A DNA stretch of 64,000 bases, taken from contig JBBILR010000002.1 of the NCBI GenBank assembly GCA_037444825.1, positions 27,984 to 91,983 of the forward strand. The letters are read 5' to 3'. The DNA comes from Acidobacteriota bacterium. GTDB lineage: Bacteria; Acidobacteriota; UBA4820; DSQY01. The notes beneath the pieces are model-generated. The model ran no database searches. It was not told the origin of the DNA and saw nothing but the letters and a program-made list of their open reading frames with translations. Positions 1,887 to 18,614 of this stretch are shown here, piece after piece (positions within the stretch are counted from its first letter, which is position 1; each line of letters begins with the position of its first letter). A program made the translations under genes and the position numbers.

Positions 1887-3192
1887 GGATCTCTCCCACG
1901 AGGTCGTAGGGGTGCGCCTCCGTGACGCGGACCTTGGCGAAGGTCCCCGGAGGGGCGAAGCCGTCGTTGAGGAGAACCTTGCCGTCCACGTCGGGGGCCT
2001 GGGTGGGGAGGCGGCCCTCCAGGAGGTGCTCGGTCTCCTCGGAGACCCCTTCCACCAGCACGGTGACCTTCTGGCCCACCCGGGCGAGGTTCTTTTCGTA
2101 GGAGACGGCCTGCTGGAGGGCCAGTAGCCGCTCCTGGCGCCGGCGCTTGGTGCGGTTGTCCACGGGGTCGCCCAGGGGATGGGCCTTGGTCCCCTCCTCC
2201 CGGGAGTAGGTGAAGACGCCTAGGTGGTCGAAGCGGGCCTCCCTCACGAAATCCAACAGGAGACGGAAGTGCTCGCGCCTTTCCCCGGGGAAGCCCACGA
2301 TGAAGGTGGACCGCACGGCGAGGCCGGGGACGGTTCGCCGCGCCTTTTCGAGAAGGCGGAGAAAGGCCTCGGCGGAGCCCCCTCTCCCCATGGCCCCCAG
2401 GATCTCGGGGTGGGCGTGCTGGAGGGGAAGGTCGAGGTAGGGCACCACCCGGGAGCAGGAGGCCATGGCCTCCAGCAGGGGGCGGCGCAGGCGGTTGGGG
2501 TAGGCGTAGAGGACCCGGATCCAGGGAACCTCCGTCTCCTTCTCCAGGCGGCGCAGCAGCATGGCCAAGCCGTCCTTGAGCCCCAAGTCCCGGCCGTAGT
2601 CGGTGGTGTCCTGCGCGACGAGGACCGCCTCCCTCACCCCCCGCTCCGCCAGGGAGCGGACCTCCCGGACCACGTCGTCCGGGGGGCGGGAGCGGAAGGC
2701 GCCGCGGAAGGAGGGAATGGGGCAGAAGGAGCAGGGGTTGTCGCAGCCTTCGGCGATCTTGACGTACGCGAGGTGGGGCGGCGTGGAGAGGAGGCGGGGG
2801 GAGAGGCCGTCGTAGAGCGGCATCTCGACGCCCACGGGGGCGTCGGGTTTCTCCTCCGTGAGCAGGCGGGCCACCTGGCCCACCGCCCCCAGGGGGATGA
2901 AGCCGTCGATCTCCGGGATAGCCTGGCGAAGCTCCTCCTTGTAGCGCTCCACCAGGCACCCCGCCACGAGGAGGCGGCGGACGCGTCCCTCCTTCTTGCG
3001 CACCGCCACCTCGAGGATGGCCCGGATGGACTCCTCCTTGGCGGCGTCGATGAAGCCGCAGGTGTTCACGATGACCGTTTCGGCGTCGGGGTCCGCCGTC
3101 ACCTCGTGGCCGGCCGCCCGGAGTTGCCCGAGCATCCACTCGCCGTCCACCCAGTTCTTGGGGCACCCCAGCTGGACCATGGCCAGGCGCAT
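1873..3192 (-). CDS. rimO: ribosomal protein S12 methylthiotransferase (radical-SAM MTTase)
   Basis: MTTase N-domain (MRLAMVQLGCPKN), radical-SAM CxxxCxxC (CSFCPIPSFRG) and C-terminal TRAM domain. RimO-type rather than MiaB-type N-terminus. ATG at 3192 chosen over the upstream ORF extension. Confidence 0.85.
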   Translation of the reverse strand: MRLAMVQLGCPKNWVDGEWMLGQLRAAGHEVTADPDAETVIVNTCGFIDAAKEESIRAILEVAVRKKEGRVRRLLVAGCLVERYKEELRQAIPEIDGFIPLGAVGQVARLLTEEKPDAPVGVEMPLYDGLSPRLLSTPPHLAYVKIAEGCDNPCSFCPIPSFRGAFRSRPPDDVVREVRSLAERGVREAVLVAQDTTDYGRDLGLKDGLAMLLRRLEKETEVPWIRVLYAYPNRLRRPLLEAMASCSRVVPYLDLPLQHAHPEILGAMGRGGSAEAFLRLLEKARRTVPGLAVRSTFIVGFPGERREHFRLLLDFVREARFDHLGVFTYSREEGTKAHPLGDPVDNRTKRRRQERLLALQQAVSYEKNLARVGQKVTVLVEGVSEETEHLLEGRLPTQAPDVDGKVLLNDGFAPPGTFAKVRVTEAHPYDLVGEILGPA

Positions 3193-3304
3193 GGCGCCTC
3201 CCGCGGGGGAAAAGGTAGCACGGGGCGGGGGAGGGGGCAACGCGGGAGGGCGGGGGCGAAAAAAAGGGGCCCCCGAAGGGGCCCCCAGGGGAAAAGACTC
3301 GGAC

Positions 3305-6300
3305 TCACCAGGACCAGACGGTGGTGGCCTCGCCGCCGTCGGGGTTGACGAAGCGGAAGGTCTTGGGGACCCCCCTGGGCACGGTGGTCTTGAGGGTGGA
3401 TCCGGTGAGGACGATCTTCGTGGAGGACTTGTAGACGACGCCGGTCCACTCGGTCCCGTCGATGTACACCTTGATCCCCTGCTGGAGGTTGGATCCGTTG
3501 ACGACGATCTTGAAGGGCGGGGACTTCTTGACCATGGAGGCGATGACCGGGGGATCCACGATGGTGATGGTCTGGGAGGCGGTGGCCGTCTGGCCCAGGC
3601 CGTCGGTTACGGTCAGCGTGATGGTGTAGGTGGCCTTGGTGGCCCAGGCGTGGCTCACGGAGGCGCCCGTGGCCGTGCCCCCGTCTCCGAAATTCCAGGC
3701 GTAGGCGTAGTGGCCGTCCCCGCCCGACGCGGAGGCGCTGAAGGTGACGGGAACGTTGGGGCCGGCGGAGGAGCGGCCGGAAATGGAGGCGCTCACGGGG
3801 CCGTAGACCTTCACGGTGACCTCGTTGCTCTGGGCCGAATTCCCGGCGCCGTCGTAAACGGTGGCCCTCGCGGTGTAGGTGCCCGGGGCCGAATAGGCGT
3901 GGGTGGGGTTCGCGCCCGAACCCGACGAACCGTCCCCGAAGGCCCAGGTGAAGGTGGGGAAGTACCCGTCGCCGCCGGAGGCGGAAACGTGGAACGACAC
4001 GGCCTGGCCAACCCGGGCCCGGGAGGGCTGCACGGTGGCCCTGGCCATGACGGGGGAGTACACCCGCACGGTGACGGGGGCGCTGGTCTTCACGGACCCC
4101 TGGCTGTCCATGACCGTGACGATGGCCGCGTAGGTCCCGGGGACGGCGTAGGTGTGGGCGGGGGGATCGGCGGAGGTGCCGGTGCCCCCGTCCCCGAAGG
4201 ACCAGGCGTAGGTGTACGGGGTGGAGCCGCCCGTGGCGGCGCAGGAGAAGTCCACGGAGAGCGGCGCCGAACCGGAGGGGTTGGAGGGGGAGGCCGTGAC
4301 GGTGACCGCCAGGCTCGAGACCGTGATGGTCGTCGCGGCGCGGGCGGTGTATCCGGAGGCGTCGGTGGCGGTGACCTGGGCCGTATAGGTTCCGGCCGCG
4401 GTGTAGGTGTGGCTCGCGGAGGCTCCCGTGGCCGTGTTGCCGTCTCCGAAGTCCCACGAGTAGCCGTAGGGAGGCGTGCCGCCCGTGGCGGCGGCCTGGA
4501 GGGTCACCGCGAGGGGAGCCGGCCCCGCCGCGGGGGTGGCCGCGGCGGAGACGCCGAAGGCCACGCAGAGGGAGTGGAGGGCCCCGCCGTCGGCCTGGAG
4601 GACGCCGGAAACGCCGGTGACCTGAACGGGGGTGCTCCGCGTGGTGGTGGTTCCGTCGCCCACCTGGCCGTCGCCGTTGGTGCCCCACGCCCACAGCGTG
4701 TGGTCGGTGCGGATGAGGAGGCTGTGGCGGTCGCCGGCGGCCACGGCGGAGGCGTTGGCGATCCCGGGGAGCTGCACGGGGGCGCGGCGGTCGGTGGTGG
4801 TTCCGTCTCCCAGCTGGGCGTAGTAGTTGTCGCCCCACACCCAGAGGGTCCCGCCGGACTTCACGGCGAGGTTGTGGTCCCGCCCCGCGGCGATGGCGGT
4901 GACGTCCGTGAGCCCCGAGACCTGGACGGGAGTCCGGCGGGTGGTCGTCGTGTTGTCGCCGCACTGGCCGTCGGCGTTGTTCCCGCAGGCCCAGACCGTG
5001 CCGTCGCTCTTGAGGATCAGCGTGTGGTGCTCGCCGGCGGCCACGGCGGAGGCGGTGACGATCCCCGAGACCTGCACGGGGGTGTGGCGGTCGGTGCTCC
5101 CCCCGTCGCCGCACTGGCCGTAGTAGTTGTCGCCCCACGCCCACACGGTGCCGTTGGACTTTCGGGCCACGGCGTGGTAGCCGCCCGCGGCGATGGCGGT
5201 GACGCCCGTGAGGCCCGAGACCTGGACCGGCGTGAACCGGTCGGTGGTGGTCCCGTCGCCGAGGTTCCCGTTTCCGTTGTCGCCCCACCCCCAGACGGTC
5301 CCGTCGGCCTTGAGGGCGAGGCTCCAGTTGATGCCCGCCGCCACCTGCACCACGTTGGAGAGGCCCTGCACCTGCTTCGGGAAGCGGCTGGGAGTCTGGG
5401 TGCCGTCGCCCAGCTCGCCCGAGCCGTTGTTGCCCCAGGCCCAGACCGTCCCGTCGGCGGCGAGGCCCAGGGAGTGGTCGCTACCCGCGGCCACCTGCAC
5501 GAAGGCGGAGGGGCCCAGCACGCCCACGGGACCGGTGCGGTCGGAGCCGCTGGTGCCGTCGCCCACCTCCCCGCTGTTGTTGTTGCCCCATCCGTGGGCG
5601 TTGGAGGCCACGGAGAGGACGGCCGTCTGACTGTAGGTGCTGCCGCAGGAGGCGGTGACCTTCACCCAGTACCTTTTCGTGGTCTGGACGGCGGGCGTGG
5701 TGTACGTGCTGGAGGTGGCCCCCGAGATGGGGGAGGTGATGGTCCCGCTGGGCCCCTCGTACCACTGGTAGGAAAGGGCGGTGGTGCCCTGGGCCGCCAC
5801 CGAAAGGGTGACGCTGGACCCGGGGCTCACCACCTGGCTTTGCGGGTGCGCCGTGATGCGGGGCTTGACGCAGGTGGCGTTGGTGACGGTGACGGTCCCC
5901 GTCTGCACGCACGGCTGGGCGCCGGTGGCGGTGGCCGTTAAGGTCCAGGTGTAGGTTCCGGGCGCTAAGTAGGCGTGGGTGGGGTTCTGCAAGGTGGAGA
6001 GGGGCGCCCCGTCCCCGAAGTTCCACTCGTAGCCCACGCCTCCGGTGCCGCAGGAAGAGACGGCTTGGCCGAAGAAGGCCGCCGGGACGGCGGTGAAGGC
6101 CGACGTGGGGGCCCAGGCCTGGCAGGTGACGGCGCAGGGGCTCCCGCACTGGCTCACGGCGCGGGCGTAGGCGGTGCACCCCTGGTAGGTCACGCAGATC
6201 TCCAGGTCGTGGACCGACCCGTCGGTGTAGATCGTGTCGTAGGAGATGACGTACTGGTTGTTGATGAGGTTGCCGATGTCGGTGAGGATCTGCTGGAGGG

Positions 6301-9300
6301 CCCCGGCGTCGGTCCCCCGGTAGTACTTCCCGCCCGTCTGGTCGGCGATCCGCTGCATCACCGCGTCGTCGGGGCTTCCGAAGCCGATGGTGTAGATGGG
6401 GATGCGGGCCTGCTGGGCGTAGGCGATGATCTCCGCCTCGGTGTGGGAACTGCTGTTGTCCTCCCCGTCGGTCATGGCGAGGACCGCCTTGCGGCCCGTC
6501 TTGGCGGCGGTGGCCACGAGGGCGTCATAGGTGGCGTCGAAGAAGGCGGTGGAGCCTCCGCTGTAAGCGTACCCGTCGATGGCGGCGTAGAGGGCCTGCT
6601 TGTCGGCGGTGAAGTCGATCACGAAGTCCACCTGCGAATCGAAGCCCCAGACCGCCACCTGGTCCGACGCGCCGAGGAGGCCCACGAAGGTCTTGGCCGC
6701 GTTCTTCTCCAGCTGGAACTGGGAGGAGCCGAGGCTGCCCGAGTTGTCGATGGTGATGCCCACGTAGAGGGTGGATCCGCTCTGTCCCGCGCCGGTCACG
6801 GTGAAGTTCTGCGGCACGCCGTCCTCGCTGACGCAGAAGGAGGAGGCGGTGAGCCCCTGGACCGGCTGGCCCTGGCCGTCGAAGACGCTGACCACCGCCT
6901 GCACCGTGGGGCACCGGGAGGGGTCCACCTGGGCGATGGCGAGGGTGGGGCAGGTTCCCGACGCCCCGCACCGGAAGGTCCCCTGGACCCACCGGGTGCA
7001 CCCGCCGGTGGTCACGCAGAACCGGAGGTCGTGCAGGGCGCCGTCGGTCTTGGTGGTGGTGTAGGAGACCACGTACTGGCTTCCGAGGAGGGTGCCGATG
7101 GCGGAGAGGATCTGCTGGAGGTTCTGGGAGGAGGCCGAGGCGAAGAAGAGGCCGCCCGTCCTCGCGGCGATGTCCTGAAGGACGGCCTGGTCGGCGCTCC
7201 CGAAGGCGATGGTGAAGACGGGGATGCCGAGGCTCTGCGCGTAGAGGACGAGCTCGTCCTTGCCGTGGGAGGAGGAGTTGTCCTCCCCGTCCGTCATGGC
7301 CACGACGGCCTTTCGGCCGGACTTGGAGGCGGCGTTCGTGAGCGCCGCCCATACCCCGTCGTAGAAGGCCGTCATCCCCCCCTTGTAAGGGTAGCCGTCG
7401 ATGGCGGCGAGCAGGGTGGGTTTGTTCGACGTGAAGTCCTGGACCAGGTCCACCGTGCTGGTGAAGCCGTACACCGCGCACTGGTCGCCGGCGCCCAGCA
7501 GGTTCACCAGGGCCTTGGCGGCGGTCTTTTCGTCGTTGAAGGCCGACGAGCCGAGGGAGCCCGAGTTGTCGATCACCTGCGCGAGATACAGGGAGGTCCC
7601 GCTCTGGGAGGCGGTGGTCACCGTGAAGTTCGTGATGGAGGCGCCGTCCTCCTCGACGCAGAAGGCGGAAGAGGAGAGGCCCGTGACGGGGTTCCCGGTG
7701 GCGTCCCGGACCGTGAGAATTCCCCTCACCGTCGGGCACGCGGAGGTGTCCACCTGGGCCAGCGTCACCTGGGGGCAGTTGCCCCCGCCGGAGGTCCCGC
7801 ACCGCATGGTTCCCGAGGCGTAGGTGGTGGGGCAGCCGGGGAGGCTCTGGAGGCAGACGTCGAGGGCGTGGCTCTGGCCGTCGTTCTTCGTGGTGGTGTA
7901 GGTGAGGACGTACTGGTTGTTGATGACGTTGCCGATGTCGGTGAGGATCTGCTGGAGGTTCTGCGAGGTGGCCGAGGCGTAGTAGCGGCCGCCGGTCTGG
8001 GTGGCGATGGCGGTGAGGACCGCCACGTCCGCCGAGCCGAAGCCGATGGTGAAGACGGGGATGCCCAGGCTCTGGGCGTAGGCGATGAGTTCGGCCTGGG
8101 AGTGGGAGGAGGAGTTGTCCTCCCCGTCGGTCATGGCGATGACGGCCTTTCGCCCCGTCCTCGGCCCCGTGAGGGAGAGGGCCTGGTAGACCGCGTCGTA
8201 GAAGGCCGTCATCCCCCCCTTGTAGGGGTACCCGTCGATGGCGGCCTGGAGGGCGGCCTTGTCGGTGGTGAAGCCCTGGACGAGGTCCACCTGGCTCGTG
8301 AACCCCAGGAAGGCCGCGGCGTCCCCGGCGGCCAGGAGACCCACCAGGGCCTCGGCGGCGTTCTTCTCGTCGGCGAAGGCCGAAGAGCCGAGGCTTCCGG
8401 AGTTGTCCACCACCAGGGCCGCCTGGAGCGCGTTTCCGCCCCCGCTGCCGGTGGTGAGGGAAAAGCTCTGGGAGACCCCGTCCTCCGAGAGGCAGAAGTT
8501 GGAGGCCGTGAGACCCGTCACCGCCTGTCCCGAAGGGCTGGTCACCGTGACCACGACCTTCACCGTGGGGCAGGAGGCGGTGTCCACCTGGGAGACGGTG
8601 AGGGTGGGGCAGCTCCCGCCGGCGCCGCAGGTGAAGGAGCCCTGGGCGGTGAGGAGGGAGCAGCCGGGGGCCTGGACGCAGGGTTCCAGCGTGTGGCTCT
8701 GGCCGTCGGCGCGTGGGGTGGTGTAGGTGATCACGTACTGGTTGTTCATGACGGCGCCGATGGCTTGGAGGATGGCCTGCAGGTTCCCCGAGGAGGCGGC
8801 GGCGTAGAAGCGGCCCCCCGTCTGGGTGGCGATGGCCTCCAGGACCTGGGTGTCCGCGCTACCGAAACCGACGGTGAAGACGGGGATGCCGAGGCTCTGC
8901 GCGTAGGCGATGAGCTGGGCCTGGGAGTGGGAGGAGGAGTTGTCCTCCCCGTCGGTCATGGCGACGACGGCCTTCCGGCCGTTTCGGGTGGAGGTGTTGG
9001 AGAGGGCCTGGTAGACCGCGTCGTAGAAGGCCGTCATGCCGCCCTTGTACGGGTAGCCGTCGATGGCCGCGGAGAGGGCGGCCTTGTCGGCGGTGAAGTC
9101 CATCACCAGGTCCACGGCGCTGGTGAAGCCGTAGACCGCCGCCTGGTCGGAGGCGCCCAGGAGGGCGATGAAGGCCTCGGCGGCGGCTTTCTCTTCGTGG
9201 AACGAAGACGACCCCAGGCTGCCGGAGTTGTCCAGCACCAGGGCGGTGTAGAGGTCCCCTCCCCCCGACGAGCCATGGGTGACGGTGAAGTTCGTCACGG

Positions 9301-10666
9301 GGACCCCGTCTTCGCTCAGGCAGAAGTCGGAAGCGGTGAGCCCCGTCACCGCCCCCCCGGCGGCGTCGAGGACGCTCACCACGGCCTTGACGGTGGGGCA
9401 GGCGGAGGTGTCCACCTGGTTGAGCAACAGCGTGGCGGGGCAGGTGGACTGGCAGCCCGCCGGCACGTTCACGTGGCCGGGAACGGTCTTCGTGCCGGCG
9501 TTGGTGGAGGAGACCTGAATGGTGTAGGCGAGGTCCCCGGTGACCGCCCCGCTGGCGCTGACCTGCCAGGAGAGGAGTGCGGAGGAGCCGAGGGGGAGGT
9601 CCCCCACCGTCTGGGTGGCGCTGCCGGCGGCCAGAGACAGGCCCGCCGGCAGGGTCAGCGTGGCGGAGAGCCCCGTCACGGTCCCGCTGGAGCCGGAGAG
9701 GGTGTTGGAAAGGTACAGGGACACGGTGAAGGGGTTGGGGGAGAAGAGGTGGTTGACGCAGTCCAGGTTGGAGGGGGCCGTGAGGGCCGTGGCCACCGGA
9801 GGGACGGTGTCCACCGCGATGGACCCCAGCCCGTAGTAGGTTCCGAAGGTGAGGCTCGACCCCGGGGCCAGCGCCCGGTTCTCCCAGTAGACGGCGTAGG
9901 CCGTGTCGTAGATGGTGAACTGGGGGTTCACGGTGTAGTCGAAGTCTTGGTCGTACAGGTGGGCCCACCCGGCCACCTGGAAGCGGTCCGGAGGCAGGGC
10001 CACCAGGCCTCCCAGGAGGGTGCCCTGGCAGGTGGTGGTGGGGTTGTAGAGGTCGTCGAAGACGTAGAAGTACGGCGGCAGGGAGGCGCCGGTCCACTCC
10101 CGCTCCTGGGCGATGGAGCCGGTCCCGGGGACCTGGAAGGGGGCGTTGTCGTTGGCCCCGATCTTGGTGTCGAGCATGATGCGGCAGCCCACCGTGTGCG
10201 AAACGGAGTCCAGGTTCTCCACGGTGTAGGAGACGAAGTAGGCGTCCTGGCGCCCGGTGGCGGTGCTGGTCACCAGCGTGATCCGCTGGCGGACCCGGAG
10301 GGGGCCCGTCCCCAGGTACCAGACGCCCTCGTTGGTCTGGCCGTTGTTGGTGGGGGGCTGGACGAGGGTCCCGAAGGAGTCCTCGTTGGTGTACACGGTG
10401 CCGTCCACCTGGATGGAGGAGAAGGAACTCCACGGGTAGGGGTGGCCGTAGAGGATCATGGGCCCGCCGGGGACGCCCATGGTGAACTGGCCCGAGGTGT
10501 CGTCGAGGGCCACCTCGATGTACGGGGACCCCGGCCCCCACGAGAGGGGCCTCGGCGGGCCGGGCCGAAGGGCCTCCTTCCCGCCGCCCGCCGCGAAGGC
10601 GGCGAAGGTCCCGGCGAACGCCGACAGGAGGAGCACCGCCGCACGCGAAATCCGACGCATTCTCAT
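3305..10666 (-). CDS. giant secreted multidomain protein (2454 aa): signal peptide, ~380-aa N-terminal domain, 4x [beta-sandwich + von Willebrand factor A domain with DxSxS MIDAS], 1 PKD, Ig-like domain, 7-bladed RCC1-like beta-propeller, 4 PKD domains, C-terminal IPT/TIG-like domain
   Basis: ATG at 10666 has a GGAGG RBS 8 nt upstream and a signal peptide (MRMRRISRAAVLLLSAFAGTFAAFAAG). Four near-identical modules each carry DNSGSLGSS...TDGEDNSSSH...GIPV(F/Y)T(V/I)GFGS (VWA/MIDAS). Seven RCC1-type blades are visible (HxLxLxxDGTVWAWGxNxxGQLGDGTT), and there are repeated PKD-type WxFGDG...HxYxxxGxYT motifs. The ORF-track start at 10843 is an upstream extension without RBS. Confidence 0.85.
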   Translation of the reverse strand: MRMRRISRAAVLLLSAFAGTFAAFAAGGGKEALRPGPPRPLSWGPGSPYIEVALDDTSGQFTMGVPGGPMILYGHPYPWSSFSSIQVDGTVYTNEDSFGTLVQPPTNNGQTNEGVWYLGTGPLRVRQRITLVTSTATGRQDAYFVSYTVENLDSVSHTVGCRIMLDTKIGANDNAPFQVPGTGSIAQEREWTGASLPPYFYVFDDLYNPTTTCQGTLLGGLVALPPDRFQVAGWAHLYDQDFDYTVNPQFTIYDTAYAVYWENRALAPGSSLTFGTYYGLGSIAVDTVPPVATALTAPSNLDCVNHLFSPNPFTVSLYLSNTLSGSSGTVTGLSATLTLPAGLSLAAGSATQTVGDLPLGSSALLSWQVSASGAVTGDLAYTIQVSSTNAGTKTVPGHVNVPAGCQSTCPATLLLNQVDTSACPTVKAVVSVLDAAGGAVTGLTASDFCLSEDGVPVTNFTVTHGSSGGGDLYTALVLDNSGSLGSSSFHEEKAAAEAFIALLGASDQAAVYGFTSAVDLVMDFTADKAALSAAIDGYPYKGGMTAFYDAVYQALSNTSTRNGRKAVVAMTDGEDNSSSHSQAQLIAYAQSLGIPVFTVGFGSADTQVLEAIATQTGGRFYAAASSGNLQAILQAIGAVMNNQYVITYTTPRADGQSHTLEPCVQAPGCSLLTAQGSFTCGAGGSCPTLTVSQVDTASCPTVKVVVTVTSPSGQAVTGLTASNFCLSEDGVSQSFSLTTGSGGGNALQAALVVDNSGSLGSSAFADEKNAAEALVGLLAAGDAAAFLGFTSQVDLVQGFTTDKAALQAAIDGYPYKGGMTAFYDAVYQALSLTGPRTGRKAVIAMTDGEDNSSSHSQAELIAYAQSLGIPVFTIGFGSADVAVLTAIATQTGGRYYASATSQNLQQILTDIGNVINNQYVLTYTTTKNDGQSHALDVCLQSLPGCPTTYASGTMRCGTSGGGNCPQVTLAQVDTSACPTVRGILTVRDATGNPVTGLSSSAFCVEEDGASITNFTVTTASQSGTSLYLAQVIDNSGSLGSSAFNDEKTAAKALVNLLGAGDQCAVYGFTSTVDLVQDFTSNKPTLLAAIDGYPYKGGMTAFYDGVWAALTNAASKSGRKAVVAMTDGEDNSSSHGKDELVLYAQSLGIPVFTIAFGSADQAVLQDIAARTGGLFFASASSQNLQQILSAIGTLLGSQYVVSYTTTKTDGALHDLRFCVTTGGCTRWVQGTFRCGASGTCPTLAIAQVDPSRCPTVQAVVSVFDGQGQPVQGLTASSFCVSEDGVPQNFTVTGAGQSGSTLYVGITIDNSGSLGSSQFQLEKNAAKTFVGLLGASDQVAVWGFDSQVDFVIDFTADKQALYAAIDGYAYSGGSTAFFDATYDALVATAAKTGRKAVLAMTDGEDNSSSHTEAEIIAYAQQARIPIYTIGFGSPDDAVMQRIADQTGGKYYRGTDAGALQQILTDIGNLINNQYVISYDTIYTDGSVHDLEICVTYQGCTAYARAVSQCGSPCAVTCQAWAPTSAFTAVPAAFFGQAVSSCGTGGVGYEWNFGDGAPLSTLQNPTHAYLAPGTYTWTLTATATGAQPCVQTGTVTVTNATCVKPRITAHPQSQVVSPGSSVTLSVAAQGTTALSYQWYEGPSGTITSPISGATSSTYTTPAVQTTKRYWVKVTASCGSTYSQTAVLSVASNAHGWGNNNSGEVGDGTSGSDRTGPVGVLGPSAFVQVAAGSDHSLGLAADGTVWAWGNNGSGELGDGTQTPSRFPKQVQGLSNVVQVAAGINWSLALKADGTVWGWGDNGNGNLGDGTTTDRFTPVQVSGLTGVTAIAAGGYHAVARKSNGTVWAWGDNYYGQCGDGGSTDRHTPVQVSGIVTASAVAAGEHHTLILKSDGTVWACGNNADGQCGDNTTTTRRTPVQVSGLTDVTAIAAGRDHNLAVKSGGTLWVWGDNYYAQLGDGTTTDRRAPVQLPGIANASAVAAGDRHSLLIRTDHTLWAWGTNGDGQVGDGTTTTRSTPVQVTGVSGVLQADGGALHSLCVAFGVSAAATPAAGPAPLAVTLQAAATGGTPPYGYSWDFGDGNTATGASASHTYTAAGTYTAQVTATDASGYTARAATTITVSSLAVTVTASPSNPSGSAPLSVDFSCAATGGSTPYTYAWSFGDGGTGTSADPPAHTYAVPGTYAAIVTVMDSQGSVKTSAPVTVRVYSPVMARATVQPSRARVGQAVSFHVSASGGDGYFPTFTWAFGDGSSGSGANPTHAYSAPGTYTARATVYDGAGNSAQSNEVTVKVYGPVSASISGRSSAGPNVPVTFSASASGGDGHYAYAWNFGDGGTATGASVSHAWATKATYTITLTVTDGLGQTATASQTITIVDPPVIASMVKKSPPFKIVVNGSNLQQGIKVYIDGTEWTGVVYKSSTKIVLTGSTLKTTVPRGVPKTFRFVNPDGGEATTVWSW
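4558..5602. repeat. intragenic tandem repeat: seven ~150-bp RCC1-like propeller-blade units
   Basis: Seven consecutive ~50-aa units with a conserved W(A/G)WGxN...G(E/Q)(L/C)GDGTTT...P(V)QV...V..(V/I)AAG..H(S/T)L pattern. Confidence 0.75.
6118..9448. repeat. intragenic tandem repeat: four ~830-bp VWA-domain modules inside the giant gene
   Basis: Protein modules at aa 466-745, 746-1025, 1026-1300 and 1301-1575 of the ORF are highly similar over ~275 aa each. This implies ~0.83-kb direct DNA repeats. Confidence 0.8.
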
Positions 10667-10950
10667 GGAATCACCCTCCTCGGGGGAAGGGGGCGCCGAA
10701 GAGCGAAGGAATCCCCTTTCCCTCCCGGGGGGAATCTTGCAAGGACCGTTCCGCCGCCGTTCTTCGGGAAACTCCCTCAAAATGCGAGGGGATGATTCTC
10801 CGCAGGCCCCGAGGGGCGAAAAATTTTCCCGGGCCCCGTCCATTTTTCGTGGCTCCCGTCGCCGAAAAAAACCTTGTGGCTTCCCGGGGAGGGGGATAGA
10901 CTTCCCGCAAGCCTGGCGGAAGAGGGGGTAGCCCCTTGCGGGAGGAAAAG

Positions 10951-13900
10951 ATGACCGGTCCGAGGCTCAGGGCGGCGGCGGCGGTTCTGGGGCTCCTCGC
11001 CGGGCAGGCGTGGGCCGGCGGGGCGCTGCGGGTTCTGAAGGCGGGTCCCGTGGGGGAGACGGCCAACCTCGCACAGGCCGGGGAGATCCGGGTGGTCTTC
11101 TCGGAGCCCATGGTGGCCTTGGGGCGGGTGGCGGAGCTTCGGGAGGTGAGGGGGTTCTCCATCTCCCCCCCCGTGGCCGGCACCTTCCGGTGGGCGGGGA
11201 CCGACACGCTGATCTTCCGTCCCGAAACCCCCCTCCCCTTCGCAACCCGGTACGAGGTGCGGATCGGCCCCGAACTCCGGGCGGTCTCCGGGCAGAGCCT
11301 GCCGAACCCCTACGTCTTCGCCTTCACCACCCCCACGGTGAGGCTGAGGAGCGTGCGGTGGATCCGCGAGGACGGGACGGTCCGCTCGCCGGTCCTCCTG
11401 GCGGTGGCCTTCAACCAGAAGGTGGACCCCCGGCAGGTTCTGCCCCACCTCTCGCTGGCCTACCGGCCCCACGACTACGCGCCGCCCCCCCTTCCCGCGG
11501 GGGTCAAGGAGCGCCTTTCCCGGGAGGACCCGCGGGCGGTGGAGGACTACCAGTTCAAGGCCGCCGCCGCCATGCTGGCCGCCAGGTCCTCGGACCCGGT
11601 CCCCTTCGAGGCCGCGGCCTCCTGGGACGAGAAGCGATTCCCCCGGGCCCCGGAGGTGCTGGTGGTGCGAACCCGGTCGGCCCCTCCCCCCAACGCCTGG
11701 TTGGAGGTGGTGCTGGACGGGAAGGCGCCGAGCCCCGAGGGCCCCGAGGTCTCGGGGGAGGTCCAGCGGTACACGGTCCAGCTGGAACCGGCCTTTTTCG
11801 TCAAGGGTTTTCGATGCACCTACCGGTGCGTTCCGGACGGGTACAACCCCCTGGAGTTCACCGCCGACGTCCGCTTCGGCGATCTGAAGGAGGCGGTCTC
11901 CCTCTTCACCGGCGACGCCGGGGGGGGCGCCGTCCGGAAGGCCTCGCCGGAAGGGGAGGGGGAATCCTGGGATTGGCCCTCTCGGTACTGGTCCCTGGAC
12001 CGCCTGGGCCTGGAGCCGCCCCCCGCCGCCTCCTTCTTCGTCCAGGTGGACCGCGGCCTGAGGTCCGACGACGGCCAAGTCCTCGGCTACACCTGGCTCT
12101 GCGAAATGACCACCACCCACCGCACGGCCTTCTCCGCCTTCGAATCGGGCTTCGGGGTCTGGGAGGCCTCCGGCGGCCCGGTGCTCCCCCTTTCCGTCCG
12201 CAACCTCGCCTCCGTGAACCTCTGGGTCATGCCGCTGAAGCTGGGGGAGCTCCTGCCGGCGGTGCGGCAGCTGGCGGTGCGCCCCGTCTCCAAGGACCCC
12301 GACACGGGGGAGGAGGAACCGGACTACACGTGGCGGCCCTTCTCCCTTCCCCCGCCCGTCCCACCGGTCTTCCGGCGCCTGAAGACCCCGGTGGACCGCA
12401 CCGCCTTCGTGGGCCTGGACCTCTCGCCCGCGTTGAACGAGAAAGGCAAGGGACTTTCGTGGGTGGCGGTGAAGAACGGCGAGGCCATCCCGGGGGCGCC
12501 CTTCGCCGCGGAACCCCCGCTCAAGGCCTCCCTCATCCAGGTCACCGACCTGGGCCTCACCGTGAAGGATTCGCCCCAGGGCTTCCTGGTCTGGGTCACC
12601 CGCCTCTCCGACGGGACCCCCGTCTCGGGGGCCTCCGTGGCCGTCTGGAAGCCGGACGGGAGCCGGGTCTTCGAAGGCGTCACCGGCGCCGACGGCACCG
12701 TCCTCACCCCGCCCCTCTCCCTTCGGGACCCCGAGAACGGGTGGGACCTCTCCTTCGTGGTCTCGGCGGAGAAGGACGGCGACACGGCCTACCTCTGCTC
12801 CGACTGGAACGAGGGCCTGGAGCCGTGGGAGTTCGGGGTCGGTTACGACCTCCACGAGCAGAAGCCGGTGCTGAGGGGGCGGGTCTTCCCCGACCGGGGC
12901 GTCTACAAGCTCGGCGAGGAGGTCCACCTGAAGGCGGTCCTCCGAAGCGACACGGCCTCCGGCATGAAGGTCCCCCCCGAAGGGACGGAGGCGGCCCTCC
13001 TCGTGAGCGACAGCCGAGGAGGCAAGGTGGCGGAGCGTACGGTGGCCCTGGACGCCTTCGGGGCGGCGGAGGTGGTGGTGAAGCTCCCCGAGGAGGCGCC
13101 CCTGGGGACCTACACCGTCACGGCGGAGGTGAAGGGCCACCACCGGGAGGTGCGGGACGCCTTCCTGGTGGCGGCCTACCGGAAGCCCGACTTCCGCGTG
13201 GACGCCGCCCTCGGGGCCGAGCGGCCGGTGGCGGGCGTCCCCCTCCTGGGGACGGTGACGGGGCGGTACCTCTTCGGCGCCCCCATGGCGGGGAGGCCCT
13301 GCCGCTTCTCCGTGACGCGGCGGAGGCTCACCGGAGCCACCCCCGCCGTCACCCAGCGGTACCCCGAGGGGTGGATCTTCGGCGAGGGGACGGACCGGTG
13401 GGACTCCCGCGGGGAGGAGACCGTGAAGGAGGCCGACGGGACCCTGGACGCCCAGGGGACCCTCCGGGTGGAGGTCCCCACCGGGGACGGCCAGGGCCTC
13501 TCCTACACCTACACGCTGGAGGGGACCGTCACCGACGTCACCCGCCAGACCCTCTCCGGGCGGATCTCCGTTCCCGTCTACGCCGCGCCGTTCTTCGCGG
13601 GCCTCAAGGACCCGCCGTTCTTCGTGGACGCGGGCAAGGACCTGGTGACGGAGGTCCTCACCCCGGACCTCTCGGGGAACCCCGTGGAGGGCCTCTCCGT
13701 CTCCCTCAAGCTCGTGCAGGTCCAGTGGCACGCCGTGCGGAGGGCCGAGGGCAACGGCTTCTACACGTGGGAAACGGAGCGGAAGGAGGTGGAGCGGTGG
13801 ACGGGGAAGGTGACCTCCGCCGCCCGGCCGGTGGAGGTCCGGATCCCCGTGGAGCAGGGGGGGTACTACCTCCTCCGCGCGGAGGCCGCCGACGGCGAGG

Positions 13901-16788
13901 GAAGGGTCTCCCGCTGCGGGGCCTCCTTCTACGCCTTGGGCGCGGGCTTCACCGCCTGGGAGCGGTACGACCACAACCGCATCGACCTCGTCCCCGAGAG
14001 GAGCACGTACCGGCCCGGCGAGACGGCGCGGATCCTCGTCAAGTCCCCCTGGGAGAAGGCCAAGGCCCTCCTCACCGTGGAGCGGGAAGGGGTCCGCACC
14101 CACCGGGTCTTCGACCTCGTCTCCACCCAGCAGACGGTGGAGGTCCCCGTGGGGGAGGGCGACGTGCCCAACCTCTACGTCTCGGTGGTCCTCCTCAAGG
14201 GCCGGACGGAGGCCTACACCGGCGAGGACGTCTCGGACCCCGGCAAGCCGGCCTTCCGCGTGGGCCTCGTGGAACTCCACGTGGAGAACCTCGTGAAGCG
14301 GCTCTCGGTGGCCGTCTCCAGCGACGCCGACGAGTACCGCCCCGGCGCCCGGGCCGTCGTCTCCGCCGTGGTCACCGACGGGGCGGGAAAGCCCGCCGAG
14401 GCCCAGGTGACCCTCTGGGCGGTGGACCACGGCGTCCTCTCCCTCACCGGCTACCAGACCCCGGACCTTTTGCCCTCGGTCTGGGTGGACAAGGCCCAGC
14501 AGGTCCTCACCGAGGACTCCCGCCAGCGCATCGTTTCCCGGAGGGTGCTCACCCCCAAGGGGGCGGACGAAGGGGGCGGAGGAGGAATGGAGGAGGGCCC
14601 GGGGGAGGTCCGGCGGGACTTCCGGGTCCTCGCCTTCTACCTGGGTTCCCTCGTCACGGACGCCAAGGGAAAAGTTACTTCTGAAGTAACATTGCCGGAG
14701 AGCCTCACCACCTACCGGATCATGGCCGTGGCCCACGACAAGGCCTCCCGCTTCGGCTTCGGCCAGAAGGAGATCCGCACCGCCAAGCCGCTGGTGCTCC
14801 TGCCCTCCCTGCCCCGCTTCCTGGCGCGGGGGGACCGGGCCGTCTTCGGCGTGGTGGTCCACAACCGCGGCGGGTCCTCGGGCCGGGTCCGGGTGGAGGC
14901 GGAGAGCCTGGACGCCGGCCGGCTGGCCCTCGCCGGCCCCACGGTCCAGGAGGTGGATTCGGCCCCGGGCGTTCCCGGGGAGGTCCGCTTCGCCTTCGAA
15001 GCCCGCGGGGTGGGCAAAGCCCGCCTCCGCTTCCGCGCCGCCCTGGGCGGGGAGACGGACGCCTTCGAGCAGGTGCTCCCGGTGGAGGTCCTCAACGCCC
15101 CCGAGGCCGCCGTGGCCACGGGCTCCACCGAGGGTACGGCGGAGGAGGCCCTGGAGGTCCCCGGGGGGGTGGTGCCCGGCTTCGGCGGGCTGGAGGCGAG
15201 CCTGTCCTCCACGGCCCTCGCCGGTTTGGAGGAGGGGGCGAGGTACCTGGTGGACTACCCCTACGGCTGCGCCGAGCAGCGCGGCTCCGCCACCCTCGCC
15301 CTGGTGCTGGTCTCCGACCTCTCGGGGGCCTTCCACCTCCCCGGCATCGAGACGGAGAAGATCCGGGACATCGCCCAGCGGAACCTCAAGGCCCTGGAGG
15401 CCTTCCAGTGCGAAGACGGCGGATTCGTCTACTGGAAGGGCTCTTCGTGCCTCTACGCCTCCGAGGTCCTCACCGCCTACCTCCTCCACGTCTTCCAGCG
15501 GGCGCAGGCGCTGGGCTTCGCCGTGAACGAGGAGGTCCTCCGCAAGGGGTACGACTTCCTGTCCCGGGCGCTGAACCGCCCCTACCCGGTGAACGAGGGG
15601 TGGTGGCCCCACTACACCGCCTGGCAGGCCTACGCGGTGAAGGTCCTGGCCGACGGGGGCCTCACCGTGGACAGCCACCTGAGCCGGCTTTACCCGTACG
15701 CAGGCCGAATGCCGGTCTTCGGCCTGGCCTACCTGGAGGGCGCCATGGCCCGCTCCGGCCGCTTCCAGGCCGAACGGCAGGACCTGTTGCGCCGGATGGA
15801 CGACGCCATCCTCCCCGAGGGGGCCGGCGCCCACGTGGAGGAGCTTTCCGACCCGTACCTCCTGTGGTTCTGGAACTCCAACGTGCGCTCCACGGCCATC
15901 GTCCTCTCGGCCTTCGCCAGGGACCCCGGGCGCCGCCACACCGCCGAGCGCATGGTGCGCTGGCTCCTGGACGCACGGCGGAAGGGGAGGTGGGGCAACA
16001 CCCAGGAGAACGCCCACGCCCTGGAGGCCCTCATCGACTACTACCGCGCCTACGAGAAGGAGACCCCCGACTTCCGGGCCGCGGTCTCCCTGGCGGGGAA
16101 GACCCTCCTGGAGGAGCGTTTCGCAGGGCGGACCACCGAGGCCAAAGGGACGGCGCTGAAGATGGAGGCCCTCCACGCGGAGGCTTCCTCGGGCGCGCGC
16201 CTGCCTCTGGTGTTCTCCAAGAAGGGAACGGGCAGGCTCTTCTACACGGCGCGCCTGAAGTACGCCCTCGCCCCCGAAGGCCTTGGCCCGGTGGACCAGG
16301 GCATCGCGGTGGAGCGGCGCTACGAGCTCTACGAGGGCGACGGCGGCCAGGGGCCCACCCGCGCCTTCCCCCAGGGCCGCCTTGTCCGGGTGACCCTGAC
16401 CCTTCACCTCCCCAAGGAACGGCGGTACGTCGCCGTCACCGACCCCCTCCCCGCCGGCCTGGAGCCGGTGGAGTCCTGGTTCGCCACCACCGCCAGGGAC
16501 CTCCAGAAGGCCCCGCCGCCTTCCTCCGGGGACGAAGGGGACGAGGAGGGCGAGGGGGAGGGGTGGTTCCTCCTTTGGCAGCGCGGCGGCTTCGACCACG
16601 TGGAGCGCCGCGACGACCGCGTCCTCCTCTTCGCCACCCGCCTGGCGGCGGGCAAGCACGCCTTCTCCTACGTGGCGAGGGCCACCACCCAGGGCGTTTT
16701 CGTCGTCGCCCCCGCCCGCGCCGAGGAGATGTACAGCCCCGAGGTCTTCGGCCGCACCGCCACGGAGGTGGTGGAGGTGCTCCCGTAG
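10951..16788 (+). CDS. bacterial alpha-2-macroglobulin family protein (thioester-containing, periplasmic; YfhM-like)
   Basis: ~1945 aa. Signal peptide without lipobox Cys (LLAGQAWA|GG). Thioester motif GCAEQ at 15268-15279 inside YLVDYPYGCAEQRG, and an A2M receptor/complement-like C-terminus. Start set at the ATG with a GGGAGG RBS (10951); the 10936 ATG is also possible. Confidence 0.85.
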   Translation: MTGPRLRAAAAVLGLLAGQAWAGGALRVLKAGPVGETANLAQAGEIRVVFSEPMVALGRVAELREVRGFSISPPVAGTFRWAGTDTLIFRPETPLPFATRYEVRIGPELRAVSGQSLPNPYVFAFTTPTVRLRSVRWIREDGTVRSPVLLAVAFNQKVDPRQVLPHLSLAYRPHDYAPPPLPAGVKERLSREDPRAVEDYQFKAAAAMLAARSSDPVPFEAAASWDEKRFPRAPEVLVVRTRSAPPPNAWLEVVLDGKAPSPEGPEVSGEVQRYTVQLEPAFFVKGFRCTYRCVPDGYNPLEFTADVRFGDLKEAVSLFTGDAGGGAVRKASPEGEGESWDWPSRYWSLDRLGLEPPPAASFFVQVDRGLRSDDGQVLGYTWLCEMTTTHRTAFSAFESGFGVWEASGGPVLPLSVRNLASVNLWVMPLKLGELLPAVRQLAVRPVSKDPDTGEEEPDYTWRPFSLPPPVPPVFRRLKTPVDRTAFVGLDLSPALNEKGKGLSWVAVKNGEAIPGAPFAAEPPLKASLIQVTDLGLTVKDSPQGFLVWVTRLSDGTPVSGASVAVWKPDGSRVFEGVTGADGTVLTPPLSLRDPENGWDLSFVVSAEKDGDTAYLCSDWNEGLEPWEFGVGYDLHEQKPVLRGRVFPDRGVYKLGEEVHLKAVLRSDTASGMKVPPEGTEAALLVSDSRGGKVAERTVALDAFGAAEVVVKLPEEAPLGTYTVTAEVKGHHREVRDAFLVAAYRKPDFRVDAALGAERPVAGVPLLGTVTGRYLFGAPMAGRPCRFSVTRRRLTGATPAVTQRYPEGWIFGEGTDRWDSRGEETVKEADGTLDAQGTLRVEVPTGDGQGLSYTYTLEGTVTDVTRQTLSGRISVPVYAAPFFAGLKDPPFFVDAGKDLVTEVLTPDLSGNPVEGLSVSLKLVQVQWHAVRRAEGNGFYTWETERKEVERWTGKVTSAARPVEVRIPVEQGGYYLLRAEAADGEGRVSRCGASFYALGAGFTAWERYDHNRIDLVPERSTYRPGETARILVKSPWEKAKALLTVEREGVRTHRVFDLVSTQQTVEVPVGEGDVPNLYVSVVLLKGRTEAYTGEDVSDPGKPAFRVGLVELHVENLVKRLSVAVSSDADEYRPGARAVVSAVVTDGAGKPAEAQVTLWAVDHGVLSLTGYQTPDLLPSVWVDKAQQVLTEDSRQRIVSRRVLTPKGADEGGGGGMEEGPGEVRRDFRVLAFYLGSLVTDAKGKVTSEVTLPESLTTYRIMAVAHDKASRFGFGQKEIRTAKPLVLLPSLPRFLARGDRAVFGVVVHNRGGSSGRVRVEAESLDAGRLALAGPTVQEVDSAPGVPGEVRFAFEARGVGKARLRFRAALGGETDAFEQVLPVEVLNAPEAAVATGSTEGTAEEALEVPGGVVPGFGGLEASLSSTALAGLEEGARYLVDYPYGCAEQRGSATLALVLVSDLSGAFHLPGIETEKIRDIAQRNLKALEAFQCEDGGFVYWKGSSCLYASEVLTAYLLHVFQRAQALGFAVNEEVLRKGYDFLSRALNRPYPVNEGWWPHYTAWQAYAVKVLADGGLTVDSHLSRLYPYAGRMPVFGLAYLEGAMARSGRFQAERQDLLRRMDDAILPEGAGAHVEELSDPYLLWFWNSNVRSTAIVLSAFARDPGRRHTAERMVRWLLDARRKGRWGNTQENAHALEALIDYYRAYEKETPDFRAAVSLAGKTLLEERFAGRTTEAKGTALKMEALHAEASSGARLPLVFSKKGTGRLFYTARLKYALAPEGLGPVDQGIAVERRYELYEGDGGQGPTRAFPQGRLVRVTLTLHLPKERRYVAVTDPLPAGLEPVESWFATTARDLQKAPPPSSGDEGDEEGEGEGWFLLWQRGGFDHVERRDDRVLLFATRLAAGKHAFSYVARATTQGVFVVAPARAEEMYSPEVFGRTATEVVEVLP

Positions 16789-16920
16789 GCCGGAGGAGGC
16801 GTCAGACCGGGAACCGGTCCGGGAGGGTCCTGGAAACCGGCCCGGGACGGCCGAGGCTTCTCGGTCCCCAAGGGCCGGAAGCGGGCCTGTCGGCGGGGCG
16901 CCGGAAGGGAGTGGGCGCGC

Positions 16921-18486
16921 TCACCTCCCCCGTTCGTAGGGGGCGAAGGCGACGGTGTTGGCGCGGTAGTCGAACCAGACGGCGAAGAGGTCCAGGATGT
17001 CCCTCCGGCCGAGGATCCCGTACAGAGGGAGGCCCCAGCCGCCGCCCAGGGGGGTCACCTGCACCGTCTGCATGTCGAAGCGGGCATTTCCCAGGAGGAG
17101 GACGACGTCGGTGGCCACGCCGCTGGTGAAGGCGCCGGAGAGCCCCGACCCCGTCTGGGCGCCGTAGCGGCCCGAGTTCACCCGGACCCCCGCTTCGGCG
17201 GCCCTTTCCGCCGCGATGAAGGTGGTGTAGGCGCCGGTGTCCACCATGAAGAAGCGCTCCGGCTTTCCCTGGAGGGTGGCGGCGACGAAGGGCCGGTCGT
17301 AGGGCCAGAGGGACTTGACGGTGAAGGCCTCCGGTCCCAGGGCCTCCTTCGGCGGGGTGCCGCTGGGGTGGAGGACCAGCTTGCTCCGCCGCCGGTCGTA
17401 GAGGAGACCGTGGTGCCGGAAGAGGGAGAGGGGCACGATGCCGCCCACCTCCTTGAAGAAGTCTTCCTTCTCGCTCAGGACCAGCGCGGGGACGTTGCGG
17501 AGGGTCAGGGGCCCGAAGGCGAGGCGGTCGAGGATCACCCAGTTGGACTTCTGGGCCCCGAGGTAGCCGAGGCCGAGGTAGGAGGCGGTGGCCACCGGCT
17601 GGAGGCCCAGCTCCTTGACCCACTTCGGGCTCAGAAGGAGGGTGTCGGAACCGGAATCGAGGAGCACGAGGCGGTCCTTGGTGCCGTTCACCGCCACCGG
17701 CGTCACCACGCGGGTGGAGGTGGTGACGCTGCCGGTCCCCGCGTCCCCGAAACCCCAGGTGAGGGCCGAGACGTCCCGGTACTCCGACTTCTCCTTGAGG
17801 GGAAGGGCGACGGGGTACGAAGCCTCCAGCTTCTCGTCGAAGAGCCGCCCCTTTCCCACGGCGCCGTAAAGGCGTTTCAGCCCCTCGTACTCGTCCTTTC
17901 CGGCGGGGTCGGCGGCCAGAAGCGCCTCGGCCCGCATGACCCCCTCCTCCCCCGTCTTCGCCAGGCCGAGGGCCAGCCGGAGGAGCTCCGGCGAGGGCTT
18001 CTCCGAAAGCGACAGGGTCCTTTCCAGGAGGGCCGACGCCTCCTCTTCCTTGCCCGACGCGCGCAGGGCGAAGACCGCCCGGGCGCAGGCCCGGTCCCGC
18101 CAGGAGGGGTTGGAGAGGAGGACCGTCCAGTTCTGCACCGCCTGGGGGACGAGGAGCATCTGGAAGGCCGCCTCGCCCGCGTAGTACCGCAGCTCCGGCC
18201 GGTCGGGAAAGCGCGAGGCCCAGGGGACGGCCATGCGGGCCGCCTCCTGGGGCCGGTTCAGGCCCAGGAGGGCCCGGATCTTCCCGGCGGCGTAGCCGGG
18301 GTTGTCCGGTTCGGCTTGGAGGCCCGCTTCGGCGGACTGCAACGCCTCCTCGTACTTTTCCCCCTCCAACAGGAGCCCGATTTCCTGGAGCCGTCCCGGC
18401 GGGAGGGTCCCCCCCGTCTGGGCCCAGGCGGGGAATGCCAAGATGAACGCCAGAAGGGCCTGAAGAAGCCGTGGTCGGAGCGCCAT
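16921..18486 (-). CDS. secreted TPR-repeat protein with two tandem retropepsin-like aspartic protease domains
   Basis: Signal peptide (MALRPRLLQALLAFILAFPAWAQ), a TPR-like helical N-half, then two clan-AA catalytic motifs preceded by hydrophobics: LVLLDSGSDTLLLS (DSG at 17650-17658) and FFMVDTGAYTTF (DTG at 17233-17241). Confidence 0.75.
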   Translation of the reverse strand: MALRPRLLQALLAFILAFPAWAQTGGTLPPGRLQEIGLLLEGEKYEEALQSAEAGLQAEPDNPGYAAGKIRALLGLNRPQEAARMAVPWASRFPDRPELRYYAGEAAFQMLLVPQAVQNWTVLLSNPSWRDRACARAVFALRASGKEEEASALLERTLSLSEKPSPELLRLALGLAKTGEEGVMRAEALLAADPAGKDEYEGLKRLYGAVGKGRLFDEKLEASYPVALPLKEKSEYRDVSALTWGFGDAGTGSVTTSTRVVTPVAVNGTKDRLVLLDSGSDTLLLSPKWVKELGLQPVATASYLGLGYLGAQKSNWVILDRLAFGPLTLRNVPALVLSEKEDFFKEVGGIVPLSLFRHHGLLYDRRRSKLVLHPSGTPPKEALGPEAFTVKSLWPYDRPFVAATLQGKPERFFMVDTGAYTTFIAAERAAEAGVRVNSGRYGAQTGSGLSGAFTSGVATDVVLLLGNARFDMQTVQVTPLGGGWGLPLYGILGRRDILDLFAVWFDYRANTVAFAPYERGR

Positions 18487-18614
18487 GCGTCCCCCTTTCC
18501 CCCGGTGGTTCACGGGTCGGGGTTCATTGTACACCAGAAACCGGCGGCCGTTGTGAGCCGAGGCCCCCGGGAAGGGTCTCCGGCTCGGCCTCGGGGTTGT
18601 TGTACCCTGAAAAC

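Follow-up and report, generated by a model that had tools for sequence, protein, structure and literature searches.

A giant VWA/MIDAS protein of predicted extracytoplasmic location encoded beside an alpha-2-macroglobulin gene in Acidobacteriota

We investigated a giant gene of an Acidobacteriota bacterium, located at positions 3305 to 10666 (minus strand) of a 64,000-nucleotide stretch of contig JBBILR010000002.1 (assembly GCA_037444825.1, positions 27,984 to 91,983; hereafter the window). The encoded protein of 2,453 amino acids (aa) carries four VWA modules in tandem, each with a complete metal-ion-dependent adhesion site (MIDAS), joined to an N-terminal head with a predicted all-beta fold and to a long chain of PKD, Ig-like and RCC1-like domains. 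We think it rather probable that this protein is an exported, non-enzymatic, multivalent and metal-dependent scaffold for binding or adhesion outside the cytoplasm, with export route, location and ligand inferred. The protein is a rare recombination of common extracellular modules and falls within the familiar class of giant exported multi-domain binding proteins.

Domain architecture of the giant protein

The open reading frame (ORF) on the minus strand spans 3305 to 10843, and the ATG at 10666, preceded by a GAGGAGG ribosome-binding site, was chosen as the start. Translation from this codon gave a product identical to the NCBI protein P0001, and the N-termini of its relatives aligned to the same start. 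The original prediction had placed a signal peptide, a long unassigned region, four VWA modules, a PKD domain, an Ig-like domain, a seven-blade RCC1-like propeller, four further PKD domains and an IPT/TIG-like end in this order. This order was confirmed by motif scans and by a Pfam scan, which recovered VWA in four stretches, PKD or PKD_4 in five, Ig_3 in one and RCC1 in seven, in addition to WD40_RLD. The adhesin or ligand-capture architecture proposed at the same time also fits, as the recognised modules are all binding or spacer domains, the four MIDAS are intact, and neither Pfam nor NCBIfam detected a catalytic family in the protein. The features of the gene are as follows.

3305..10666, minus strand: whole coding sequence (2,453 aa), stop codon included, supported by the ORF and its translation, the ribosome-binding site, the identical NCBI protein and full-length relatives of 64-80% identity
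10589..10666, minus strand: predicted signal peptide, aa 1-26 (MRMRRISRAAVLLLSAFAGTFAAFAA), from the sequence; the AlphaFold (AF2) model has a low-confidence lone helix at aa 2-25, then a disordered linker
9791..10555, minus strand: N-terminal beta-supersandwich, aa ~38-292, with a galactose-mutarotase-like fold according to the predicted structure and its fold matches
9455..9790, minus strand: Ig-like beta-sandwich, aa ~293-404, the NEW3/CARDB/DUF11-like second half of the head, all-beta in the AF2 model
8627..9454, minus strand: VWA module 1, aa 405-680, with beta-strands, a full-MIDAS VWA domain, further beta-strands and six cysteines
7793..8626, minus strand: VWA module 2, aa 681-958, full MIDAS
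6968..7792, minus strand: VWA module 3, aa 959-1233, full MIDAS
6146..6967, minus strand: VWA module 4, aa 1234-1507, full MIDAS, GGSTAF variant
5870..6145, minus strand: PKD domain 1, aa ~1508-1599 (Pfam PKD_4 and PKD; WNFGDG at aa 1548)
5603..5869, minus strand: Ig-like domain, aa ~1600-1688 (Pfam Ig_3 at aa 1601-1669, and Ig_7)
4559..5602, minus strand: seven-blade RCC1-like beta-propeller, aa ~1689-2036 (Pfam, DNA repeats and motifs)
3557..4558, minus strand: four tandem PKD domains, aa ~2037-2370 (Pfam PKD_4 and PKD; WxFGDG at aa 2071, 2155, 2241 and 2324)
3308..3556, minus strand: C-terminal TIG-like beta domain ending in FRFVNPDGGEATTVWSW (weak Pfam TIG match)
3255..3291, minus strand: intrinsic terminator with a 9-bp G+C stem, a TTCG loop and a T-run, directly 3' of the stop codon

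The VWA modules provided the clearest assignment. The Pfam model PF00092 (VWA) matched four separate stretches with 260.5 bits (cut-off 23.8), and all four modules contained DNSGS...GG(M/S)TAF...MTDGED, which constitutes a complete DxSxS/T/D MIDAS. These residues aligned with DSSGS, GST and MTDGE of the A domain of Toxoplasma MIC2, so the earlier claim of intact MIDAS in every module is borne out by motif and alignment alike. In an alignment of 31 family members, D75, S77 and D168 were invariant, and S79 and T141 were nearly invariant. In addition, the NCBIfam model TIGR03436 (acidobact_VWFA) matched in four stretches (421.8 bits, cut-off 81.25; model positions 8-318 of 324), covering the MIDAS together with the beta-strands that flank the VWA domain on both sides. 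Because this model was matched over nearly its full length four times, each module represents the known acidobacterial unit in full and not a bare VWA domain. The AlphaFold model of module 1 (pLDDT 85.6, pTM 0.82) contained three beta-strands, a canonical VWA core with the alpha/beta Rossmann-like fold, and three more strands; the N- and C-terminal flanking strands may form a single sandwich. The closest full-length relatives came from metagenome-assembled genomes (MAGs) of Acidobacteriota and Thermoanaerobaculia, consistent with the acidobacterial origin expected for TIGR03436. Going by sequence, the modules belong both to TIGR03436 and to the VWA/MIDAS superfamily, and metal-dependent ligand binding is predicted for them. 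The protein contains 40 cysteines, including six per module at conserved positions, and this content fits an oxidising, extracytoplasmic location.

We compared the modules with known VWA proteins. The nearest stand-alone proteins of the TIGR03436 type are 300-470 aa long and are annotated as 'VWFA-related' or 'Ca-activated chloride channel family'. They share with each giant module the near end-to-end match to the model, including MIDAS and beta flanks, but they have a single module and are at most 41% identical, whereas the giant protein combines four modules in tandem with a supersandwich head, an RCC1 propeller and PKD arrays. Identity to BatA/BatB-type VWA domains (PDB 3ibs) and to MIDAS-bearing A/I domains of the metazoan type (CMG2, integrin alpha I, ITIH, MIC2/TRAP) was 14-25%, and, unlike these proteins, the giant protein starts with a signal peptide and lacks a hydrophobic segment at its C-terminus. 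The giant multi-domain bacterial adhesins with a VWA domain (LapA-type RTX proteins, Mfa5, RrgA, GBS104 and SpaC pilus tip adhesins) are similar in design, as a long chain of Ig- or PKD-type spacers presents the VWA/MIDAS domain, and the VWA domains of LapA, Mfa5, RrgA and SpaC were among the structural matches of the giant's VWA. However, these adhesins have one VWA domain where the giant protein has four plus an RCC1 propeller and a supersandwich head, and the giant protein is devoid of RTX repeats or a type I secretion system (T1SS) signal, LPXTG or pilin motifs, and a type IX secretion system (T9SS) tail.

The signal peptide is probably of the Sec type, with a cleavage site predicted from the sequence, and it lacks a lipobox cysteine. 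The region behind it had been described as an unknown domain of 380 aa. About 370 aa are indeed without a Pfam match, but their fold can now be modelled as a galactose-mutarotase-like supersandwich followed by an Ig-like domain. The AlphaFold model, built from a 17-sequence alignment, was all-beta (pLDDT 84.9) and matched GH94 and cyclic-glucan-synthase N-domains, aldose 1-epimerases and a GH174 fucanase; Foldseek agreed on the fold and added OpgD/MdoD and the YidC periplasmic domain. A review of fucoidanases gave no description of the GH174 fold. The head superposed structurally on galactose mutarotase-like supersandwiches, with sequence identity to every structural match of only 5-13%. Neither Pfam nor NCBIfam matched the head even at E ≤ 10, nor did any PDB sequence, and membership of the aldose 1-epimerase, GH94 or GH186 families is accordingly not supported by sequence. 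The periplasmic glucan proteins OpgG/OpgD/MdoD and the GH94 N-domain belong to the same fold class, and OpgD has the same two-domain order, but at 7-12% identity there is no sequence-level relationship. In homologues, the equivalent of the Ig-like part matched NPCBM_assoc (NEW3), DUF11 and CARDB. The head residues D166, T167, N172, D173, E188, W234, D254 and W261 were invariant, suggesting that a site for binding or catalysis is conserved here.

The family of head domains is large. When 1.84 billion representatives of 50%-identity clusters were searched with a profile, at least 1,825 proteins were retrieved at E ≤ 1e-30 (weaker matches may stem partly from PKD columns in the profile), distributed in bacteria and at least one archaeon. 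In all 12 family members scanned, no Pfam model covered the supersandwich part. The head usually follows the signal peptide, and its partners in other proteins include LCAT/PGAP1-type lipases, a GDSL lipase, a metallophosphoesterase, PKD and Big_7; this fusion to catalytic domains and PKD suggests an accessory or targeting role. Some distant homologues end in a PEF-plus-helix tail. Six relatives of about 580 aa (P0078-P0083) consist of the head, one PKD domain and a C-terminal domain ending in WSW. As these proteins keep the head, PKD and C-terminal domains, the giant protein looks like the same frame into which four VWA modules, an Ig-like domain, the RCC1 propeller and extra PKD domains were inserted. 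The head is a known fold without a described sequence family.

We also observed a separate arrangement of head and VWA genes on the archaeal contig L096 (10001-15198; the same in L097-L099), which carries genes for eIF-1A, family B DNA polymerase and archaeal DUF728x proteins. There, a 463-aa head-domain protein with a PEF-plus-hydrophobic-helix tail is encoded convergently to a 1,081-aa protein with Big_1, VWA and PKD domains. The head and VWA/PKD parts are separate neighbouring genes on this contig and are fused in the window protein.

The C-terminal half was assigned by repeated motifs. Pfam RCC1 matched the propeller in seven stretches (250.7 bits) and WD40_RLD reached 285 bits; seven WGxNxxGxxGD motifs recur with a period of 50 aa between aa 1693 and 1994, corresponding to seven DNA copies with a period of 150 nucleotides (nt). 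Five WxFGDG motifs mark the PKD domains, with one N-terminal and four C-terminal to the propeller. Both the propeller and the PKD domains are typical of their families. The match of the C-terminal domain to Pfam TIG was below threshold (18.8 bits, cut-off 20.9; E = 0.0017). The same domain recurs at the C-terminus of P0078-P0083 and of an RCC1/He_PIG protein from another Acidobacterium (L039). No T9SS tail (Por_Secre_tail or type B CTD) was matched by Pfam or NCBIfam. The features of RTX/type I adhesins were likewise not found, since HemolysinCabind had no match and an N-terminal signal peptide is present. A sortase, PEP-CTERM or PEF-CTERM anchor is absent, as the protein ends in GGEATTVWSW without a hydrophobic segment. 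Proteins of locus L084, from an unclassified bacterium, do carry a T9SS tail. This locus (9920-20288) was considered as a distant fused relative and rejected, because it encodes three separate T9SS proteins: a T9SS-tailed RCC1 protein of 13 repeats and then two VWA proteins, which are adjacent there and fused in the window protein.

Divergence and conservation of the four modules

The original prediction regarded the modules as nearly identical tandem repeats of about 0.83 kb, and hence as a site prone to recombination, variation in copy number and collapse during assembly. We determined the period by a repeat search and pairwise alignments, as the longest period of Tandem Repeats Finder (500) makes it blind to a repeat of this size. 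The period was 822-837 nt, in agreement with the predicted tandem repeat, but the near identity did not hold. In pairwise comparison, the modules were 56-70% identical as protein and 75-81% identical as DNA, and the longest exact DNA matches between modules were 16-47 nt, indicating that the modules have diverged. The same codon was used at 70-75% of conserved residues, against 65-68% expected from codon usage alone; because these values are near each other, synonymous sites are close to saturation. The G+C content at third codon positions of the gene was 95.6%, in a window of about 70% G+C. Taken with the same-codon figures, this indicates that the DNA similarity between modules mostly represents conserved residues under extreme codon bias. 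This bias inflates the nucleotide similarity of diverged repeats and produces spurious antisense ORFs: the strand opposite to 3305-10666 carries many long ones, such as that at 5975-10795 (plus strand, 1,606 aa).

We examined relatives in NCBI MAGs and in ENA, Logan and JGI assemblies. Relatives of 64-83% identity were full-length and in frame in at least five independent assemblies; one close full-length relative came from a Thermoanaerobaculia MAG (L005), and L001/L006 came from an Acidobacteriota MAG. Module number was four in all eight full-length relatives (L001/L006, L005, L086, L085, L087, L002 and L003), and given the independence of these assemblies, the four-module structure is not an assembly artefact. 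In P0002, P0003 and P0004, each window module best matched the module at the same position (72-91%) and was less similar to its paralogues (54-71%). This positional orthology, together with the presence of four modules in every full-length relative, indicates that the quadruplication is old and predates the divergence of these lineages. As judged from these alignments, there is no concerted evolution among the modules, and the fourfold duplication is fixed.

The overall architecture is rare and carried by a handful of loci. A search of 5.8 billion protein clusters found the same domain order in only three other proteins, plus the shorter P0005, and the design is shared by a small clade (P0002-P0004, L005, L085-L087). 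P0003 and P0004 are sister proteins with 73% identity. P0005 is a more distant relative of 1,688 aa with three modules and without the RCC1 propeller. Most relatives carry a cysteine-rich, two-domain segment of 245 aa between the head and VWA module 1 (L001 11207-11962; also L005, L086, L002 and L003), for which no Pfam match was obtained. This segment is cleanly and in frame absent from the window (at ~9443-9454), from its closest relatives L085/L087, and from P0005.

Instability of the array would be suggested by the tandem arrangement itself, by a few exact matches of 31-47 nt between modules, and by P0005, in which two of the three modules are 81% identical. However, the nucleotide identity of 75-81% with synonymous sites near the codon-usage expectation, the constant module number and the strict positional orthology in the three proteins compared all speak against it, and the length variation that actually occurs among close relatives concerns the 245-aa non-VWA segment and not module number. 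We regard a recombination or copy-number hotspot as extremely improbable, and the concern over repeat instability can be dropped; with modules this diverged, even reads of 150 bp suffice to tell them apart.

The alpha-2-macroglobulin neighbour

The giant gene is divergently oriented to a gene for a bacterial alpha-2-macroglobulin, and the following features lie upstream of it.

10667..10950: divergent intergenic region between the giant and macroglobulin genes, 284 bp
10951..16788, plus strand: bacterial thioester alpha-2-macroglobulin, 1,945 aa, CAEQ at aa 1440 (Pfam bMG3, MG2, A2M_BRD, A2M, TED, bMG10)
16921-18534, minus strand: TPR-aspartyl-protease gene, after the macroglobulin gene
18471-20951, plus strand: PBP1C gene, about 1.7 kb beyond the macroglobulin gene

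The divergent neighbour noted in the original prediction is real, although the spacer measures 284 bp (macroglobulin ATG at 10951) and not ~270 bp. The gene order of macroglobulin, TPR-aspartyl protease and PBP1C was also found in L001. The window genes represent the established macroglobulin/PBP1C pairing, here split by an additional protease gene. They resemble the E. coli YfhM-PbpC type in the thioester CAEQ of the macroglobulin and the nearby PBP1C gene, but differ in the intervening TPR-aspartyl-protease gene and in the macroglobulin signal peptide, which has no lipobox cysteine. Downstream, the giant gene is closed by its own strong terminator (3286-3265), followed by genes for a radical-SAM methylthiotransferase (UPF0004, Radical_SAM, TRAM), which reads as the RimO/MiaB type, and an FAD synthetase/riboflavin kinase of the RibF type. 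The remaining window has ordinary chromosomal content. PADLOC assigned no anti-phage defence family to the giant protein or the macroglobulin, and an Rfam scan of 3000-11300 returned nothing but one sub-threshold chance match.

The divergent pair of giant and macroglobulin genes was present in seven of nine related loci (L001/L006, L005, L086, L085/L087 and L002). These span giant-protein identities of ~64-83%, with different outer flanks in L001 and L002. Conversely, L003 and L004 lack the pair and have an inositol monophosphatase gene upstream (L003 98-1839; L004 20-283), preceded in L003 by a XerC/D-type integrase gene. Since both macroglobulin-less relatives carry the inositol monophosphatase gene, and L003 also the integrase, the ancestral arrangement is ambiguous. 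Of the sister proteins P0003 and P0004, only the latter belongs to such a pair, and the adjacency was therefore gained or lost within the clade.

Alignments of the spacer to related loci, although poorly anchored, showed little conservation. The sole clearly conserved element across five loci was AAGTCTA(C/T) (minus-strand reading) at 10896-10903, some 50 nt ahead of the start of the macroglobulin gene, which aligned in L085, L086, L005 and L001. A TTGAGG(G/C)(A/G)(G/A)TT block upstream of the giant gene was common to the window, L001 and L002. These alignments provided no evidence for a shared operator, and a search of the spacer for a sigma-70-like promoter was negative. The co-regulation of the two genes suggested by the original prediction is hypothetical, as the adjacency is missing in two relatives and little of the spacer sequence is conserved.

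Head-domain proteins were associated with macroglobulins in two further cases. In an unrelated genome of 53% G+C (L089 7770-14887; the same in L090), a 591-aa protein with a head 39% identical to that of the giant and an FG-GAP repeat is encoded on the same strand as a 1,755-aa alpha-2-macroglobulin and 75 nt upstream of it, with a CHASE2 adenylate/guanylate cyclase gene upstream of the pair. P0037 (2,998 aa) combines Peptidase_M23, an internal head (residues 1497-1853, 36% identity), many CARDB/NEW3-type domains, and MG2 and A2M_BRD-like domains. No macroglobulin neighbour was found at the other, shorter or more distant head-domain loci (L088, L091-L095, L096-L100 and L101-L103).

Functional interpretation

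In the reading we favour, that of an extracytoplasmic binding scaffold, the head (supersandwich plus Ig) would probably bind glycan, and the four TIGR03436-type modules would provide four independent metal-ion-dependent sites for acidic ligands. The PKD and Ig domains may act as spacers, the seven-blade RCC1 propeller may offer a further interaction surface, and the TIG-like domain would close the chain. Outside the cytoplasm, the protein would thereby hold or bridge ligands, for instance other proteins, polymers, or components of the matrix or surface. Several points weigh against this interpretation. The search for a T1SS, T9SS, sortase or PEP-CTERM signal was negative for this 250-kDa protein, which may therefore remain periplasmic. 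Some supersandwich domains are enzymes, and the fold matches include aldose 1-epimerases and OpgD/OpgG-type glucanases; several invariant acidic residues of the head could form an active site. The conserved macroglobulin neighbour, moreover, hints at a role more specific than generic adhesion.

This neighbour raises the question of whether the two proteins form one envelope-defence unit, in which the VWA/MIDAS modules or the head bind the macroglobulin or its protease complexes. Such a partnership aligns with the recurrence of the divergent pair over a broad range of giant-protein identities and with differing outer flanks, the CAEQ thioester of the macroglobulin, the adjacent head-domain and macroglobulin genes of L089/L090, and the joining of an internal head with macroglobulin-type domains in P0037. 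However, the adjacency is missing from L003 and L004 as well as from the other head-domain loci, and the two genes are transcribed divergently as separate units, with a little-conserved spacer between them. We consider the partnership unlikely on present evidence. In complement, C3b binds the VWA domain of factor B, and iC3b binds the I domain of the integrin CR3. The window resembles the C3b-factor B and iC3b-CR3 systems in that a thioester macroglobulin-family protein is encoded beside a MIDAS-bearing VWA protein, but this is a works-like analogy only, and the adjacency here is not universal. By this analogy, the pair might be a two-component capture system, in which the macroglobulin, or a protease bound covalently to it, would be recognised by one or more MIDAS sites or by the head, as a prokaryotic counterpart of complement recognition; we deem this version very unlikely. 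In our literature searches, we found no giant VWA protein beside a macroglobulin/PBP1C pair, and nothing on TIGR03436, on bacterial alpha-2-macroglobulin with von Willebrand, or on Acidobacteria VWA-domain with PKD.

Alternatively, the protein might be a glycan-active enzyme, with a catalytic N-terminal supersandwich (hydrolase, lyase or epimerase-like) tethered to a polymeric substrate by the VWA, RCC1 and PKD domains. The fold matches to aldose 1-epimerases, GH94 N-domains, OpgD/MdoD and GH174, the resemblance of the supersandwich-Ig pairing to the two-domain OpgD/OpgG layout, and the invariance of D166, N172, D173, E188 and D254, plus aromatic residues, would be in line with catalysis. Nevertheless, identity to the structural matches is very low (5-13%), no CAZy-type family was detected, and the supersandwich is a non-catalytic accessory domain in most glycoside hydrolases. 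Moreover, the heads of homologues are fused to recognisable catalytic domains (the lipases and metallophosphoesterase above), which points to a targeting role. We judge an enzymatic function to be quite unlikely, and the binding scaffold remains our preferred interpretation.

The head family is large and unannotated and stands at the front of many secreted proteins, and it merits a family definition. The repeated occurrence of a MIDAS-rich protein beside a thioester alpha-2-macroglobulin offers a testable hypothesis on the partners of bacterial macroglobulins, which are poorly understood.

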